This document shows positions 8,414 to 20,500 of a stretch of 64,000 nt of DNA, one piece after another. The notes beneath the pieces are model-generated. The model was not told where the DNA came from. It ran no database searches and saw nothing but the letters and a program-made list of their open reading frames with translations. The DNA lies in assembly GCA_965645245.1 (NCBI GenBank), contig OZ287084.1, forward strand, positions 1,426,001 to 1,490,000, read 5' to 3'. How positions within the stretch are numbered: the first letter of the stretch is position 1; each line of letters opens with the position of its first letter. The position numbers and the translations under genes were made by a program. The DNA comes from Massalongia carnosa (taxonomy: Eukaryota).

Positions 8414-10287
8414 CGGAGGCGAATCTCAAAAGTAATGATAATACGCTAAAGACTAGCGCCGTAATTTAGATTTTCCATACCGAGCCTGAAATTCTACCAA
8501 CTATCTACAAATGCCATTACCAACCATCTAATCAACGTCTTTTTGGTCTGAAACTGGCTGCAGTACGAACCACCTTTTGAATGCGTGGGGGAAGGTGATT
8601 TTTCGGAGATAAAACGGCTCTTTTTCTCAATAAGGGGGGTGTCAATGGCTTCTGTGTAGGGGGCTCAGGGGTAACTGCCCTGACATTCAACGGGCTGGGT
8701 GTATCATCATTTGATTGTCTGGATGATGGTCTCGTTGACGCTACAGAAGAAGAAGAAGAAGAAGAAGAAGAAGAAGCTGGTTTTGCTGTATTACTGAGCA
8801 ATTCTTCCCTCAGCTGTTGAAGTCGCATTTTTCCTTCTTTGGTCCGTCCATGAACGTCCAAACGTCCTTCGCAATACTCATTTCCACCTTCCAATTCAAT
8901 GACTTTTGCAATGTGAAGTGGAATTATTTCAATCCATGCCTGAATATTCTCCTGAGGTAGATCGTCCCAAGTGCGATGCCACATAGATTCAGCAATTAAC
9001 CGAGAACTAGGAGGACCTTTGGCAGTTGTACGTCGCTTCATCCAGGGCCAGCAGGGTTCAATCATGTTGAGATCAGGAGAATTTCCGGGCCATAAAAGAC
9101 GCTCGATGCCATGACGAGAGAAGATGGGAATCTGATGCTTGGAAGCATGAGACGGAGCCTTATCTTCCTGTACGATCATTTCAGACAATCCGGCTTCTCT
9201 TCTTTTTGCATTGCATTGCTGAGCAAAAGGAATCAGTTTTGGCAGAAGTTTGACGTTTTGATACCGCCACCAATCAATGCCTCCTTTACCTTCTTTTCTG
9301 ATCATCTTTCCATGTTTCTCATCCCATTTCCATTGCGGCTTTTTTCCTGGTAAATTGCGAGTTGAAAGACGTCTCATTCCATTGGTCAGCTCCCAATTTA
9401 TTCTCTCACTGGCTTCCAATGCAGCATTCATCTCGTCAAGCTTGGTTTTGGCTTCCGCTTTTTCCGCTTATGTCTCCGGTTTCCAGCAATGACATGGCCC
9501 CTTCCAATCGTAGGAAAAGCATCCCCAAAACAAGAATTCATGAGCCCCATGCCACCTAGCACGTACGGTGGATTTGACTGGTCTTCTTCCTTCCTTGGTT
9601 GTAAGCCAAATTTTGACAGCTCCGCGACGGTGACCAAGCACTATTGCTGTTTCATCTGACCAAATAACCCGCTTCCAATCCTCCACGGTCCAGTCTTTAT
9701 ACAGGAGACAAAAAGCCAGTCGAGCCGCTTTCATTTCAGGAGTAAGCCCTGGTCTATACGACGGTTTGACTTTTTTATAGCCTCTTTGTTTCAGGATTCT
9801 CCACACGGTGCATCTGGACAGTCCAACTTCTCTTGCCAACTGGGCACTGGTTTTTTCACGGGCGTATCTGTCTTTTATAACTAGATCAATGACTTCATCT
9901 TCTTTCTCAGCAGTAGCCTTTCTCGGTCGACCAGATTTTTCTTCATGACGGGCGTATTTATCAAGCACCTGCAAAGAAATGGCGGGATCAAATCCTCGAT
10001 CCCTGGCAATGCGACGAATACGATAAATGTTGGGGACAGAATAACCTGTAGTAGCTGCAATAAATTCAATTGAGGCCGGGGTGCAATAAGACAACGTCAA
10101 GACCTGAGCCCGCAAAGAAATATCAGCTGATTTATTGACCATGATGATGATTTGATCAAATGTTGGTTCGTAAATGATTTGGGATGAGAAAAGGGGAAAG
10201 AAAAGGGGAAAATTTGCTCGGTACGGAAAGTTTAAATTACGGCACTAGCTTTTAGCGTATTATCATTACTTTTGAGATTCGCCTCTG
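8414..10287 (-). mobile_element. Tc1/mariner DNA transposon (Tc1-1)
   Basis: ~70-bp imperfect TIRs (C[A/G]GAGGCGAATCTCAAAAGTAATGATAATACGCTAAA...); TA TSD at 8412-8413 and 10288-10289. Confidence 0.93.
8532..10142 (-). pseudogene. Tc1-like DD34E transposase with one in-frame TAA (9468-9470)
   Basis: HTH with SGRPRK, WSDET, and QEDKAPSH...WPGNSPDLNMIE (34 residues between D and E). The two ORFs share a frame. Confidence 0.9.
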
Positions 10288-11262: not shown

Positions 11263-12158
11263 AGCAGGCCCAGGACGAGGCTGTAAGAACCACTATCCAG
11301 GGAAGACGAATAGTAGTCAGCTACCTAAGAGTCTAAGCATGAAGAAGAGAAATCTATCTACAAAGAAGAATGTGAAATCTATATGCCCCGTTTGCCCTTC
11401 TTCTCGAAGTTTCCATCCGGCTCTAGAAGCTTATCTCCGAAGCTTCGGTCGGAAAGAGCCGTTGGATTTAGCGCTCCCACACCCGAGTCCTGACAGAGGC
11501 AGTTTTGAAGCCAGCATAAGATTCTGATATGAGGAGGAGTCATAAAAATAAGAAGAATATGAGTTGCTGAACTGAGTCAACAACGTTGTTTTTCGAGACA
11601 AGAGATTAAAAAATGCACGCAGTTCAGGAGGGTGCACGATGCAAATTTAGTGCGCGTTTTTGCCTCAGTACCTCAGACGTGCGTGGCTCAATGAGCCGGC
11701 TAAGCCCCTCCGGGTTAGCCTATTTTCGCTAAGCCCCTTCGGGTTAGCGTCGCTGCTGACTAACATCAGTGCGATAGCACGTCTGAGCGCAAAACTCAAA
11801 ATTACGGCCAGATCCGCGTAATAAAAATTTTAGCAGTGCAACCATTCCTTTTATGGATTTAATACAATGATTAGGGTCGTATTAGTTTACCAGAGACTGT
11901 ATTTTATACCAAAAACGCACCTCTCAAGATGGATGACTCGATTATCATGTGTTATAACTACTGTCAGGCTAAGAAAAGCGATGTGAAAGTCGATTAAGTG
12001 ATAAATTGTTCGCTTTCGCTCAATTTTGAGGTTGATGAACTGATTATTTTCATGTGGCGCGATTACATTGAGTTACAAAGATCATGATGATATGAATAAC
12101 GACGGCCAATCAATGGTATTGTATGATTTATCTAGATTGAAGCTATCTGACGAAAGCC

Positions 12159-14837
12159 ATGGCTCTTGTCGGGGGCCCCTCCTCGCCACTTACCGACCTA
12201 CGGACAAGTCCCTTGACTCCCGCCGGTGCGCTCAAGCGGCCCCACCCATCGCCGTCAGGCAGTAATGATAGCTCACCCTCTTCCTCCTCCCCTCCTGCCT
12301 TACCTGAAAAAAATGGAGGCGCGAAACGCCACCGCCGGCGCATATCAGATTACGACAAGCTGGTTGAGGTGCTTAAATTTCTGAGCTCTCTAAATTGGTC
12401 GGTAAAAGATTTTTTATCAACACTTTGTAAGAATCGAGCCCGTCATAGTATGCGAAAGGCGCAAGGCCAGCTCTTCGATTTTGTCTATGTCGATATTGTG
12501 CGGCAAGAAGACTTTTCAAGCCTCATTGGGCCTGGTAGAATATCCACTATCCTTCGCGAGAGAGGATGGGTTTGGGCCGCGGATGTGCTTCGTGAAGAAA
12601 TCAAAGCTTTGGCAGATCACGCAGCCTTTGGCCCTTTCCAGCCGCCCTCTGCGACAGTCGAGTTTGGGACCTTGGAGGCTATTAAACTTGCTGCATCTGC
12701 CGCCAAGCAGTTGGCGCCACGATGGCTTGAGCTAATTGATAGTGTTTGTCGCGAGGCTCGCCCGCAGGAACCTCTCGATGTGACGTTGGATTCTCCCAGC
12801 GGCCGGCACACCGTTATATTGGCAATGCTTTGTCACAAATTGCGACCAAATAAGGCGACCAATATTCAGTCCGTCTTAGGCCTTTATATTTATCAAGGTG
12901 GGGCGAGGCGGCGAGTTCTAGATACACTCTGTCATTTTGACCTGACGATGTCATATACTACCCTGCAGCGGCGCATGTTGTCCTTGATTAAGGAGGCCGA
13001 ACGAAAGGTTCAGATGCTAGGACAAGGCTCAAACATGATCTTGACATACGATAACTTTGACTTCGCAGAAGGTAAACGAGGAGAGCGCACGGGGGATAAT
13101 AGAGACGTCAGATCAATCACTACCGCTCTAATTTTCCAGGGGCAAGGATTCGATGCCGGCGCTTTGAGGCAGGATATGTGGCGCCCCGCCACGCATCTTT
13201 TATCAGCTGAAAGAATTGCGCGAAAGCTGGAGACTGGTGATCTCGAGATGCAGGTGAGTTCAATACAGGACGAGGTGTATATACCGCGCTCAATCGCTAA
13301 TGCACCGCGTACCTAGATTCGTCTTCATCATCTAGAGTCAGCGATTCGAGCGCTTTATGGCCCAGAGATCGGCGACGTTCAACTTCCTTGGTCGACTGCA
13401 ATGCCCGTGCTGAATAAGATGAAAAAATACAAGACCAATTACATTCCTATCAAACCAGTCATGAAGGATGAGAGCACAACATCTAATAATATTCAAATAT
13501 TGGAGGATATATTTGTGCGACAGTTCAAGTTCAAGGAGGATGACTCGACGTTTGCGAGCGTCATTCGGCTTATCTATGGTGACCTCAAGACATGGTCGAG
13601 AATGCAATCTGTCAAGGAATTACGTCGTGGGATATCGGAGCAATCTTTCGATCGGTTCGACTGGATTTTACCGGGATTAGGGTTATGGCATCTTCGCTTT
13701 AACATGCTGCAGCTTATTCATAAAATACATTGGGGAGAGGCCCAGCCGGTTGATCCTTCGACTCTTCAATATGCCGCCGATCGGTGGGGCCGCGCTCGTG
13801 TCGTGCAGCCGAACGATTTCCAGGCCATAGAGGATCTGATCATTCAGAGCTATCAAGCTAGAATCGTTGGGACGTGGATTAGGTTTTTACGAAAGGATGG
13901 ATATGCTCCGCAGCGAATCGAAGCAACTATTTCGTGGCTCACAGCGCAGACTTGCGGGCAGGATGGCACCTGGATGAATATGTTGGGCAGGATATCTCGC
14001 AAACTTCACGCGGAATTACCCTCAACGTCAATAGATATGCTTCCTCCAACGCTTGATCAACAATTTCAGAATCATCAGAACTTCTGTGATCACGTTGAAT
14101 CGTATCTAACACTTCGATACGCAATCAAATATGCGGATATTGGACTACTTCGTCACGCATTGCGCCACGCAACGGTGATCTTTCAGGCAAGCGTAGCTGG
14201 CACCCCGAAATATGCGCAAGCTCTTCTATACACCCTTCATGCGATTGATTCTTCCGCAGCGACCATAAGGCTACAGGAAAGTATTTTAATGAATAGTCTT
14301 GTCAATTTACGCGGTGACGAAGAGTCGAGTTTTGAGACTGATCGGCTTTTAGAGATACTAAACAATAACCTCAAGACGTTCCAGCACGAGCGATCTTATT
14401 TTTCAAAGTATAGTGACACCTTGCTCGAGAACTGGGCACTCAACGGTCCATATCTTATGAAGCTCAAAGAAATCGTTGAGTTTTACTTTGGAAGAGTCAA
14501 CTCTTCAAGGCATCCAGCAAAATCGGCCGCAGAGGATGTGTGGGGCATGGCTACGGCACTAGCGCATAAATCACTCTGTAAAAGAAGCTATGATCGATTT
14601 TCACCTAATCCAACAGCTAATCTTTATGTTGAGGGATTGAAGAAACTTGGAGAAAATGTATTAAAATACAATCAGCAGTATCTTTCCGAAGAAATTTCAA
14701 AAGAAATTTCAACAGACGACCTTGAGGGTAAGTATGAAGCCGAGCCCGATTTTGTCAATGAAACAAAGCAGGTCCCCGACAGCCCTGTCATTTCAATGGC
14801 CCGTCTCGAGATATCCGGCGGTATGTTTTTTGATTAA
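12159..14837 (+). CDS. Academ-type DDE transposase (DUF6589-like), 2 exons: 12159-13253 and 13317-14837, ~871 aa
   Basis: 63-bp GTGAGT..GCTAAT..TAG intron keeps the frame. Motifs TYDNFDF, IYGDLKT, GLWHLRFN and FETDRLLE supply candidate D, D, E. Confidence 0.85.
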
Positions 14838-14896
14838 ATCATCGATACCACGAGATAGCCTAGTCATGTAAATCCGCGCCGCGCGGCTTTACAGAG

Positions 14897-17138
14897 TCAG
14901 AGGTAGCGGACGGGGCACTTTCTTTCTTGTCTAGATCGTGTCGGAGGAAGGGCCATGGGTACATTCAGCGACAACGCTTCCATAGGATCTCGAGGCGCTT
15001 TTTTGGTCTTTGATGCCTTCATCGATGATTTAAGAGCATCAACATTGTCAACAACGAGCGCCGCATCGGAGATATTGTGATTAGGCGCAGGATTCTCGCC
15101 CGATGGCTCCGTGCTCTCGCTTTCCTTCGAGACTTTCTTCTTGACCGCATTTCGCTTTTTAAAAACCTTTCTCGACATATATCCTTGTTTGATCATCCAG
15201 TTTTTCCTCCGTTCCTCAAATTCAATACTGGCGGAGTTGCATGTTAGGCTGGGTAATCGTTTTCTCTTTATGTCGTTGTGTCGTTTCCATTCCTCGAACA
15301 TGTCTCCCTCGTCTAATCTCATTGCTTGACCCCGCTTTAAAATTTCTAAAAGCTCGGCGCCGTAGGGCCTAATACCAGTCCATGTGTTACCAATCCATCG
15401 CCGCATGGTGGGCTCGTCCACAATCTGATCCGCCCAAGTGGTCAAAGAATTCAGTACCTCATCGGGCATTATCAATGATGGGAAGTATCGCATATGTGAA
15501 TTTGGGAACTTTTCCTGCGCCTTGGCCTCCCTCCATTCTCGAAGTTTAAGGGTGAACCAAGGCCGCCTAGACGAGTCACGCTCGGCCGTTCTATTTAACA
15601 TCTCATTGGCGGCTGTTGATGTCTGAAAACTTGGATCGCAAATTGAACAGCAAGGTTGCGGCTTAACATAGGCCGACGTTGGATACACTTTATCATTGAA
15701 GAAATTCAAGCCAATACCTCGAACGCAACCATCTGAAGGCACATTGATTATCTCACAAAGACCCGGTGGCATATCTCGTCGCCGATCAGCATCCTTTTGA
15801 TTGATGCGGCGTTTACTGGCCTTGGATTCAATCTCGATTCCCGCGTCATATCCGTCCTGTTCGTCCATTTTTGATCCGCTTCTTGGACCCATGCACCAAG
15901 AAGGATGCAAAAGAGTAAAATGCGCCTGTCCTCGACCGCAACGCAAAGCACGACCTAAACGTTGGTATAGCTTCGCCATTGACGAGGGTAGCAGCCATTG
16001 CGTAACTCTCATAACGTCTGGATTATCAATACCAAGCCCGTATGCATCCGTTGCGATCAGGATTCGAGGAAATTTACATTGATTCGAGGGCATTTCGAAG
16101 CGAGCCGCAATCCTTTCTTTGTCTTGGGTGGCCATGTCGGAAAAGAAAGGCGCGACCCAACTAGCAGCCTCAATTGGATAGGACAATTGATTCATCCATA
16201 CTTTCATTAGCGCACACGCCTTTTTGATAGATGAAATTGAATCCATGAAGATAATCGTTTTCGGAATATCAAAAGGACTCTCAGCCCGTGTTGGTAAAAG
16301 ATGTTGAAGATCGATCATGCTGTTCATAGGCCGCTGTAGACTGCTTGTCTGTATGTATATCTCTGGACGATCAAGCGCTGTTTGAATAACAGTACTTTCG
16401 TTATCAAAGCCACAGCGATCTTTAACGCTCTCTAGGGTTCTTGGATCCAGCGTTGCAGACGCACCCAGAAAAGGAATACCATCTGGTAATCGTGTACGAA
16501 GCACACCGAGATTGAAGTATTCGGGCCGGAAATCTCGCCATTCGGATACAAGATCCATCTCATCAAGAGCTAAAAGACATAAATTCAAGAAGAAACTTGG
16601 ATGCCTCAGAACCTCCTGATTAAACAGCTTTGACGTCGCTATCTCTGGGCTAGTAAAAACTATTCATATTAACGAGTAAGTTTTTATATTTATCTCAATC
16701 ATAATTTGAATACACACCATGCGTATAATTGTTTTCACGAATTAACTTTAAATTAGAAGAATTATTACTATCACCGTCCAACACGAAAGGCTTGCATCCC
16801 TCGATAACGCTCAATTTCTTGCACTGTTGAGCTTCTAAGGTCTTGAGAGGCATGATAATTAAAGCGATCTTAAGACAAGAGAACATTAATGGCATAGCTT
16901 GAAAGATAATACTCTTTCCAAATCCAGTCTTGGCGATAAATATCAGATCCTTTTGATCTTGTGCTAAAGTCATGATAGCGTCAACTTGCTCATTCTTTGG
17001 ATAAAAGCCGAATTTACTTAAAATCACGGTCGTCACCTGCTCGCGAGTTATCGACGCTATAGGATCGTCCATTTCGATGTGTTCGCGAGCGATATTCGAC
17101 GATTCGCGAGTTGGATTCTTAGCCCGCAAAACGCACAT
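14897..17138 (-). CDS. RecQ-like SF2 helicase of the AcademH element, 2 exons (intron 16717-16660)
   Basis: AKTGFGKS (Walker A), FTSPE, LDEMDLVSEWRDFRPEY (motif II plus aromatic loop), GASAT, ATDAYGLGID, QRLGRALR, C..CCSIC Zn domain, HRDC-like LREWR. The start could be 17138 or 17072. Confidence 0.9.
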
Positions 17139-18312
17139 CAAGCAAGTTCATCACATTCAACGATTTTAGGCTTTCGAAAACAACGCTCGGAGGATCAGAT
17201 TAATGATCAGAAGCGCCGACAATGAAAAACTGGAGCTAGTGACCCGTTGAGTCTGCTGTGTTGGTGTCGAAATTTCGAGTCAAAGTCGAGTCCTCGTTGC
17301 GAGATCGATATTGCGACTCAATTTTGCATCGATATGTAATTAAAATATTGATTAATCGATAGAATGTATATCAAAGCATCATTTCTATTATTACATAATT
17401 TATGAAATGTCGTTGCGCGTTGTTGATTCCGCCGTCAACTTGATTCTTGATGATTTTTGAGGTTAAGCCAAAAATTTGTATGAGCGCGCACCAAAATAAG
17501 CCGGATCTGACAAAAATACAGAGTTTTGCGCTCAGACGTGCCGCCCGTAGCATGCGTAGTCAGCTAAAGGGCCGCTAACCCGAAGGGGCTTAGCGAAAAT
17601 AGGCTAACCCGGAGGGGCTTAGCCGGCTCATAGAGCCACGCACGTCTGAGGTACTGAGGCAAGCGCGTTTTTCGTGTTTATATGGGCTGACTAATGCTAT
17701 CTCGCCCATAAAACCCCCCCTATATGATAAACCCTATAACCCATAAACCCCTGTCACAAATGACCTTTTAGGTGATCAATTGACCCATAAGACCAGGGTT
17801 TTATCTGTCAAATAATTCTGTATGTGACAAGTACAATTACAGAAGAGTTATGTCATCGCTTGAAGAATGCGAAATAGCGGAATATCTCCCGCCTGTCGAT
17901 ACACTTCAACAGTCGAACTACAGCATATCCTCATTTGTGCACTATATGAGAGTACAGTACTCGTGCAGTGTAAGCTGTAAAGATGTACAGAATACGCATC
18001 ATACATGACGGCAGCTGACTAATCAATATTCCTTCCTTCATCAAACTTGATATAGGATATCTTTGGCTAAATGGTCGAATCGATCATTCTCTCATTGAGT
18101 GCGGCAATCATGAATCGTGTGGAGATGTGACGGGAATTCCACTGGAAAGAGTACCTACGAAGGACTCTGTCCGCCATGATGCAATCGATACGGTGCCTTG
18201 GTCGCCCAGACAACCATGCATATTTCTCCTTCCCACCACCACAGTCTATCGGGAACATCCAACCACCTACAGCACCTAATGACACGGCTTTACGGATGAT
18301 ACCGGGCACAGC

Positions 18313-20500
18313 ATGTCTACAAATCAGCCGTCATATGAGGAGCTACTTCGGAAGCTTCAAGAACTCGAGAAGGCAAAGGAGGAATATCGACCGATATCCT
18401 TGACAGAAGCGCTCCGCCTCTGGCATACGCTATATTCTAACCCGAAGATTTATCACCCGCCAGGCAAAATCGCACCCAGTCAATTCACCAGTCCCATCCA
18501 GCGCCTCCGTCCACAGCGGATACGACCGTGGAATGACTTCACGGATTTGCATCGACAAGCCTGGCAGGGGATCATGGAAGCGGTGGACCGCTGCCGGAAA
18601 CACGCGGTTTGATCCTAAGTCCACGTACAAGGCCGAGGCCAACCGCTTCATGCCCAAACTCGTCTTGCGGCATGAGAATCATCTGGTGAGCTACCTGGAA
18701 CGCACTGTCGAGGAGCATGTAGTCAGCATCGCCGGACGGATCGGCTCGAGCATGACGTTTTACGATCGGGACGAGAATTCGTTGGCCGACGTAACGAATC
18801 GAATCGAGCATATGGACCTGGAGGATCGACCCACCACGCCGCCATCGCGCCGAAGGTTCGACAAAGTGTGCTCGGTAACGGAGGCCACAGGCGAACGGCC
18901 GGTCCTGGTGGTGGAGTACAAAGCCGCACATAAACTGAGTCCAGCCCTCTTCCACGACCTCCACCCGGCACAATCGTTCGAGCTGGACGAGATCATTCAT
19001 CGGCATAAAATCGCGGTGCAAGAGGATAAACGCCGACGCGAGATCGTAGAAGAAATAATGGCCGTTATCATCACGCAAACATTTGACTACATGGTGGATC
19101 AGGGGGTCTCGTACGGATATGTGACTGGTGGCCACGCCTTTGTGTTCCTCCAGTACGATCCCAGCCATGCGGAGACGGTGTATTATCACTGTCAGACGGT
19201 TAAGCCAGCCATGGGGGATGAGGGCGGCGGTAACCCCCGCGCCGACGACGATGAAACGTTGCGAGAGACCGCGGTGGGCCTGGTCGCCGGATTTGCGCAA
19301 CTGGCGGCGCGTCGCGGACAAGCCATGGGATTGGGATGGATCAAGCACACGCGCGAAACGCTGCCGACATGGATGGTGGATGATGCGACAATGATGTCCA
19401 AGTTCACGCCTAGCCCGGCCAGCGCCGTCTCGAGCAAAGGCAAGGCCATCACGGAAAGCTAGTCGCCCGCGTTTCGGGGAAAGGGACCCTTGTCGGACGG
19501 GTCAGATCGCACAATGCGCAGCAAAACCAAGGCGAAAGCCAATCGGTGTGGTAAGGAACCAAAGATCCAATGGGCGGGAGGGAAAAAGGAGGACGATGAT
19601 GAACACGGCGAGGAGAACGAGGATGGAGCGCAGAAATCCAAAAGACCGACTCAGCAAAGCCAACGGCAGGCCCAATCTCCAGGATCGCCGAAGAAACAAG
19701 GCGCTCACGGAGCGGAAACCGACAGCAGCCGCAAGGAATATCATCATGCGTTATATTGCACCCAAGCTTGTCTTCTGGGTCTGGTGCGAGGCGGGAAATT
19801 GGATGCGCATTGCCCTAATGTACGAGTGCACCATCCTGCCGGAGGAAGGGTTCGAGGTCAGCGTCATTTGCTCGATCAAGGGGCATTGGAACGGCTGCTG
19901 AGCGATCAACTGAGGCAGGTGCCGCGACACGAGGACTTTCAATCACTGGATCGAAGCGGTTGGGCCGGAGCGTTGTTCTGGATCCGGCTGCGGTCGCACG
20001 GATACACGTTGGTCGCAAAGGGCACGGTGTCGCCCCTGGTGCCGGTGCTGCGAAAGGAGGCGCGGATGTACGGCCACATGCACGCCGTGAAGGGGCGGGC
20101 CGTCCCGTTGCATCTCGGCAGCATCGACCTGGCTCGACCATTTTACCTGTGCAGCGGCGTCCTGATCGTGCACCTGCTACTGCTCTCGTGGGGGGGCGAC
20201 GAGGCCGCCCACTGCGGACTCGACCCGGCCCGCCTGGAGCGCGAGACGGCCCGCACGGTCCGCGACATTACACGGCTAGGAGTCGATCAGGGAGACTTGC
20301 GTGGGTCGAACCTGCTGTGGAGCGAGGAGTTGAGACGCGTGTTGTTGATTGATTTTGAGTATGGGACGATCCGGGAGAAGCGCAAGGGGAGAGCTATTAG
20401 AAACGAGAAAAAGATGATCATGGAAGAGACAAGAAAAAAAGAAGCGGTCGTGAATGAAAACGAGATAACTATTATGAATAAACGAGCAAAGCATAAATAA
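18313..20500 (+). pseudogene. Spok-family (spore killer) homologue: coiled coil, PD-(D/E)xK nuclease, Cys/His cluster, kinase; one frameshift and one stop
   Basis: N-terminal coiled coil then RPWNDF; FDKVC...VVEYKAAHKL nuclease core; C-x3-C-x13-C-x5-H from 19757; GYTLVAKG, QGDLRGSNLLW and IDFE kinase motifs. +1 frameshift near 18590 and in-frame TAG at 19460-19462. Confidence 0.82.

Follow-up and report, generated by a model that had tools for sequence, protein, structure and literature searches.

Conserved fold-back ends and a possible long-stagger excision in a helicase-encoding DDE transposon of Massalongia carnosa

The window, i.e. the whole stretch of 64,000 nucleotides analysed here (Massalongia carnosa, assembly GCA_965645245.1, contig OZ287084.1, positions 1,426,001 to 1,490,000), contains a transposon of 6003 bp on the plus strand (11660..17662). 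It belongs to a young family, F1, whose left ends are 99-100% identical (30 near-identical left ends compared); the first letters, TTGCC at 11660, are found in 28 out of 29 left ends. The element is flanked by an 8-bp target-site duplication, gcgcgttt on the left (11652..11659, plus strand) and its counterpart on the right (17663..17670, plus strand). Two empty paralogues of the site carry gcgcgttt once, which confirms the duplication. The element is surrounded by a repeat with 12 genome matches (11520-11659 and 17671 onward); a joint 11651-17673, seen in one of the other runs searched (X2), was dropped as a candidate excision footprint because its flank is this repeat. Within F1 an 8-bp duplication accompanies 16 of 22 left/right pairs and the remaining 6 have none, while intact MITEs have it in 8 out of 8 cases. 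A single duplication of 9 bp was also seen (L227). The 8-bp target duplications are without sequence preference. Besides F1 the genome harbours a 682-bp MITE as well as F2 and F3, families that are older than F1; the F2 transposase is about 66% identical to that of F1.

The gene on the plus strand (12159..14837) encodes a DDE transposase with an RNase H core and a helical insertion. Its sole Pfam match is DUF6589, and Pfam gave nothing in the N-terminal frame. A 63-nt intron (13254-13316) is probable, as judged from its GT...AG borders and an in-frame stop. We note that in most copies the last letters of this intron are a TAG stop, and that two or three copies, including L216, have a read-through frame of 897-898 amino acids; the transposase frame is open in some copies. 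A structural model (666 residues, 108 sequences, pLDDT 90.8) was used in a fold search, in which Hermes (Z 10.7, rmsd 7.4 over 311 residues), the P element (Z 9.2, rmsd 5.8 over 332) and RAG1 (Z 9.1, rmsd 5.3 over 353) were tied. The conserved acidic residues are D104 (28 of the 33 alignment rows in which this position is occupied), D281 (104 of 108) and E538 (102 of 105). On the minus strand, two frames (14897..17072) encode a RecQ-like SF2 helicase with the Pfam domains DEAD and Helicase_C and with Walker A, DEMD and QRLGRALR motifs; they appear to be separated by one intron near 16660-16720. The best PDB sequence matches of the helicase are RecQ and WRN (E 1e-15).

Upstream of the element lies a fragment of a Tc1/mariner-type transposase (HTH_Tnp_Tc3_2; 9468-10244, minus strand), and downstream there are two long frames that have no Pfam matches (18404-20500, plus strand), the second of which ends in a kinase-like stretch, DLRGSN...LIDFE, recognised by eye. 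Named homologues come mainly from lichen-forming fungi. Moreover, seven runs (X1-X7), covering four organism codes and a lichen metagenome, contain half or more of the words of the element (11660-17662); this can be due either to recent horizontal transfer or to mixed thalli. In X4 and X5 the differences amount to 0-2 letters in each contig, and the depth is low.

We class the element as AcademH-like rather than as a member of AcademH, the label that the preliminary description had given it. Like AcademH (Academ superfamily; PMC10045372, PMC10799480, as far as their available text goes), it is a fungal element with terminal inverted repeats (TIRs), a DDD/E transposase and an SF2 RecQ-like helicase of the DEAD/Helicase_C type, but the AcademH target duplications given in the accessible part of PMC10045372 are 9 or 10 bp, and this length sets the present element apart. 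Neither fold-back ends nor a long stagger appear in the accessible portions of the descriptions compared, though the original one (Kojima 2020, Mob DNA 11:15) could mention them, and DUF6589 is not linked to Academ in the accessible part of the one paper found to use the term. KolobokH is likewise a fungal DDE transposon with a RecQ helicase (PMC9587614, available in part); Kolobok elements duplicate 4 bp, TTAA, in contrast to the duplications seen here. The best fold matches, hAT (Hermes) and RAG1/Transib, have no helicase. The hAT elements have 8-bp duplications, and both Hermes and RAG1/Transib form their hairpins on the DNA beside the element and are not known to leave long pieces of it behind. 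In elements of the IS200/IS605 group the ends are recognised in a folded, single-stranded form that has conserved bulges. Their peel-and-paste transposition depends on an HUH/Y1 enzyme, without target duplication and without inverted repeats; membership in this group or among Helitrons is excluded by the DDE fold and the 8-bp duplications of our element.

Both ends of the element can fold back on themselves. At the left end an unpaired tip of 12 nt (11660..11671) is followed by the outer arm of a closing stem (11672..11682), which consists of an invariant CTCAG and a family-specific part and pairs with the inner arm (11777..11787). The stem encloses hairpin 1 (11685..11697), hairpin 2 (11698..11720), which has a YTAA unit with a 2-nt bulge and a GGA triloop on the minus strand, hairpin 3 (11727..11749), with a minus-strand GAA triloop, and hairpin 4 (11750..11774). 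The right end, read on the minus strand, has the same layout: an unpaired tip (17651..17662), an outer arm (17640..17650), four hairpins (17543..17637) and an inner arm (17531..17541). The strings quoted in the preliminary description are all in place; its closing stem is real, and so is the similarity between the two TIRs. It had counted three enclosed hairpins, which exist, but hairpin 4 makes four. It had also described the sequence just inside the closing stem as diverged; this sequence does differ between left and right, but it pairs in both (11750-11774 and approximately 17543-17572). The one position at which left and right disagree within the outer 90 nt (11690) is in a loop, as had been observed, namely that of hairpin 1. 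In F1 the TIRs are 95 bp long with 97% identity, and the ends of F2 and F3 share only about 20 nt.

As single-stranded DNA, 11672-11787 folds at -35.2 kcal/mol (z -7.1; none of 200 shuffles as good) and the minus strand of 17531-17650 at -35.6 kcal/mol (z -6.5). Both strands of both ends fold as DNA, with z between -4.0 and -7.1, and in 6 out of 6 folds none of 200 shuffles was equal. Two positions in hairpin 3, 11735 and 11743, change together in relatives, also in two public runs, in a way that fixes a 3-nt loop. An RNA UUCG tetraloop in hairpin 3 is excluded, since the double change fits the 3-nt loop and hairpin 2 has TCC. No Rfam family matched the stretch 11500-12000 at E values up to 1. 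A motif that resembles Yap1 sites, TKASTMA, lies at 11757..11763 (plus strand), 24 nt before the bond 11780/11781 in the inner arm to which we return below, and it is found with one mismatch at 17556-17562 on the right. It is also seen that CAAAACTC stands 2 nt past the inner arm in all eight end types of this genome (11788-11816 and the right counterpart) and is followed by a GTCAGAT-like block; neither is kept in distant families.

End types of several families were folded and tested for covariation, as the preliminary description had proposed. The genome has 301 exact tip copies, compared with 2 for the control. One metagenome scan added 80 loci with protein identities of 24-63%, and a search for the tip motif that ignored the stem returned 142 matches, 58 of them in metagenome loci; 44 of these 58 have a fold-back of at least 9 nt from the second CTCAG (hand count of the table). 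Twenty-one end types from this genome and from distant fungal metagenomes were chosen by eye, with a preference for intact copies. All 21 have a free tip of 12-13 nt and then a CTCAG...CTGAG stem starting at nt 13-14. The stem span varies between 56 and 149 nt, and the folds have z values of -2.7 to -11.3 (40 shuffles each), while the segment next inward gives -2.6 to +1.5 (19 of 21 end types). At stem positions 8-11, 63 of 76 cells are paired in 19 distinct arm pairs, as opposed to a permutation mean of 27.9 and a maximum of 52 in 100,000 permutations; this count retains some circularity, since the partner position was itself found by looking for the best stem, with the invariant CTGAG as anchor. 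When reduced to 8 lineages, 43 of 48 cells are paired, which was matched by 2 of 40,320 permutations. Three or four different Watson-Crick pair types occur at each of the positions 8-12.

The number of hairpins varies from three to five while the closing stem is retained, and so are bulges and an A-A mismatch in the stems. Three-hairpin variants are L034, L046 and L209, and a fifth right-end hairpin (a gain of 24 nt) characterises a subfamily of 6025-6029 bp (L186 and about 15 other right ends). Between the left ends of F2 and F3 (F2L and F3L) there are three double changes, spread over three helices and all of them transitions, and one broken conserved pair (A to T at column 30 of F3L). G..A-closed and TT loops, which are extra-stable in DNA, are found on the transferred strand (the one with the 3' end at the tip) 15 times versus 3 times on the other, which is a hint at best, as the 62 candidate hairpins overlap and are related. 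The fold energy is lower for the bottom strand in 14 of 21 end types versus 7, i.e. strand preference is not decisive. Many loci in two related metagenomes (L123-L165) have the tip, the fold and the transposase with no helicase match nearby, and these loci look RIP-mutated. Taken together, we are highly confident that the fold is real and functional. The covariation in distant families, along with the breakpoints fixed at the inner arm that are described next, supports the earlier suggestion that the ends work as folded single-stranded DNA, and on the same evidence the element's own RecQ helicase is their likely unwinder.

Break positions are given relative to the point where the inner arm ends on its inward side, and 98 of the first 100 among the 301 tips were analysed; further tips were partly reached by later searches. 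Of these 98 ends 57 break within 500 nt. Here 27 of the 57 fall at -26..-5 and 12 at -8..-6, and 2 are at +1..+22; a uniform null is crude for such data, and it is the sharp edge that matters. Seventeen apparent breaks at -33 turned out to be mostly the five-hairpin variant, and the variants were then added as references.

The same edge is evident in 23 mini-elements in which the left fold is joined straight to the right fold with both tips kept (the set comes in part from size-targeted searches, which gave 14 matches, 5 of them already in the set). None of their ends goes beyond -6. Sixteen have one end at -6..-8 and the other end trimmed; the intact end may be the left or the right one, most junctions have 0-4 nt of microhomology, and no mini has both ends at -7. 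An 8-bp duplication (at most one mismatch) is kept in 8 of 13 elements of 157-289 bp. Only two minis share a junction (L054 and L068), and the parental haplotypes differ. The minis are not amplified; in the same table the 681-685-bp MITE, which has both inner arms, has 8 copies. With exact tips required, neither single-fold tip-to-tip elements of 124-184 nt nor (exact 9-mers) tip-to-tip remnants of 18-78 nt were found in the genome. Only one truncated end, at -9, was found in another organism.

The bond at this edge is also a site of insertion. A genome-wide search with the pattern tip, 0-12 nt, TCTGAG revealed six junctions between a tip and an arm, every one of them in an inner arm; the outer arms, which are identical and commoner, had none. 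The bond is -7/-6 in five of the six and -8/-7 in one; two of the six are ambiguous owing to a 4-nt microhomology. Three junctions are complete MITE insertions in three different host ends, each duplicating -6..+1, and a fourth fits if 1 nt has been inserted. One similar junction was seen in another organism, 1 nt off (-6/-5; L158). Two insertions are separated by just an 8-bp spacer from a tip that was already there; hence the bond known to be cut is attacked as well. A metagenome contig (L108, 4590-4674) has two tips back to back with a 7-bp spacer, which may represent a neighbouring insertion, if the duplications of this family are 7 bp long, or else the junction of a circle or dimer.

The TKASTMA motif, which covers the Yap1 sites TGACTAA, TTAGTCA and TTACTAA (listed in the consulted part of PMC6545440), has the same register on targets and on ends. 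Among 139 independent target flanks, 24 have it at -32/-33 relative to the tip (background 0.14 per position), i.e. 24-25 nt before the duplication. In 8 of the 8 end types of this genome it stands 24-25 nt before the bond -7/-6 (4 exact, 4 with one mismatch). In the distant end types it is exact in 1 of 13, at -23. In other repeats, independent insertions reuse sites to within a base or two (L007, L035, L040 and L079; L003, L016, L018 and L028; L026, L058 and L205; L180 and L193), and several of the reused sites have TKASTMA at this fixed distance.

We suggest that this is a cut-and-paste DDE transposon that leaves the donor by a very long stagger of 110-155 nt, a reading to which we assign a probability of roughly 55%. 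The transferred strand would be cut at the tip and the non-transferred strand at a point 110-155 nt further in, immediately 5' of the inner arm's GTCTGAG; at this inner bond the nucleophile may be either water or a 3' OH. In this genome's families, a protein bound at TKASTMA, 24-25 nt away, may position the active site as it would on targets, and it could be encoded by the element or be a host Yap1-like bZIP. The RecQ-like helicase would then peel the strands apart, and the folding of both released strands would hinder re-annealing. By analogy with the P element, the fold-back of the transferred strand may rebuild the CTCAG/CTGAG duplex 12-13 nt from the 3' OH for strand transfer. The donor would be left with two long 3' overhangs: end joining of these would give minis of 200-290 bp as donor scars, homologous repair would restore a copy, and fill-in across folded templates would give the 3-, 4- and 5-hairpin variants.

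The energies are consistent with a role for the helicase. The 121-bp duplex has an energy of -177.5 kcal/mol and is unable to fall apart or extrude alone, which makes this a job for a helicase; cruciforms, another suggestion of the preliminary description, are discarded in so far as they would form spontaneously, as two folds of about -35 kcal/mol each are far below the duplex. The released strands fold at -25 to -26 kcal/mol, and the transferred strand re-forms the full stem at -35.9 kcal/mol with a 12-nt 3' tail. The preliminary view that transposition is unlike standard cut-and-paste holds only in part: with the DDE transposase, the 8-bp duplications and the excision-like scars, a modified cut-and-paste fits best.

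The P element is an instructive comparison. Its non-transferred strand is cut 17 nt inside, leaving 3' tails, its duplications are 8 bp, its transferred strand is looped out and pairs again within the strand transfer complex, and the host bZIP protein IRBP binds the ends (all from the available part of PMC7776569). The two elements are alike in the RNase H DDE core with an insertion domain and in the 8-bp duplication; they differ in that the P element has a stagger of 17 nt, as opposed to the 110-155 nt proposed here, encodes no helicase and has no conserved multi-branch fold. We found no precedent in the literature for so long a stagger. To our knowledge, 110-155 nt would be the longest.

The best surviving alternative, which we still consider unlikely, is an ordinary cut-and-paste near the tip, with the minis produced by sister-chromatid gap repair that aborts at a nascent fold-back; the fold and the helicase would then serve repair and copy gain. 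Abortive gap repair is known for the P element and Ac/Ds, and unique junctions with intact duplications do fit repair scars. Moreover, a computation on a growing strand places the onset of the closing stem near -8 to -6 in 6 of 8 end types (F2L -15/-12, F3L -4), so a nascent fold-back predicts a similar stop and this computation does not separate a nick from aborted repair. However, the ceiling is equal in F2L and F3L despite their different predicted nucleation points, and the short tip remnants were not found in the search with exact 9-mers. Aborted repair also leaves unexplained why transposon 3' ends attack the same bond and why the target motif is in exact register with it.

We regard as distinctly improbable a replicative or single-strand route in which only the tips are nicked and the 3' ends joined to the target, followed by helicase-driven strand-displacement copying or by peeling of the whole strand. 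The folds would then serve for recognition or loading, in the manner of IS200/IS605, and the minis would be failed copy-ins. The presence of a helicase, a conserved fold with its stable mini-loops mostly on the 3'-ended strand, and the left/right pairs that have no duplication (6 of 22) are in line with this route, but the chemistry is DDE rather than HUH, and the attack on the inner-arm bond is left unexplained. Furthermore, the left ends read have no AAV-like flip-flop of hairpin order, and the contigs of 4 runs, in which rare forms are dropped, showed neither a circle nor an end-to-end joint.

It is very improbable that the symmetry merely reflects inverted duplex sites for a dimeric transposase and that nothing folds, as the preliminary description had offered as an alternative. 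Motifs evidently matter, i.e. CTCAG and YTAA recur and TKASTMA works on duplex targets, but duplex binding does not explain the covariation of arbitrary stem sequence, in that the stem beyond CTCAG stays paired with 3-4 pair types per position, the two ends of a single element are unlike in sequence and both fold, and the spacing varies within 56-149 nt. Least credible of all is a neutral by-product of template switching that perfects quasi-palindromes, for even though the double changes in this genome are mostly C/T with G/A transitions and F3L has its broken pair, the stem starts at nt 13-14 in 21 of 21 end types, bulges and the A-A mismatch are kept rather than perfected, and derivatives that lack the inner arms are not amplified.

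The long-stagger reading can be stated more fully: a programmed nick 110-155 nt inside each end, set by target-like motif geometry and possibly a host Yap1-like factor, would be followed by RecQ unwinding, with the conserved fold of the transferred strand as the real transfer substrate and with donor overhangs priming restoration. In this complete form we put it forward tentatively, at somewhat less than even odds. For the left end it predicts a nick at 11780/11781 and 3' tails of 121 nt; at the right end the minus-strand nick would lie between 17538 and 17537. The literature, as far as its available texts go, holds no mechanism for the AcademH/KolobokH helicase other than a link to duplication length, and structure-selected ends are described there for HUH elements, with none found for eukaryotic DDE elements. 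Among the openly accessible papers searched, we found no report of folded Academ ends or of such scars. If true, the proposed excision would give a concrete job to the helicase of AcademH-like elements, and as the family is young and some transposase frames are open, it could be possible to rebuild an active system in vitro or in yeast. A target choice guided by Yap1-like sites could place insertions next to stress-regulated genes.
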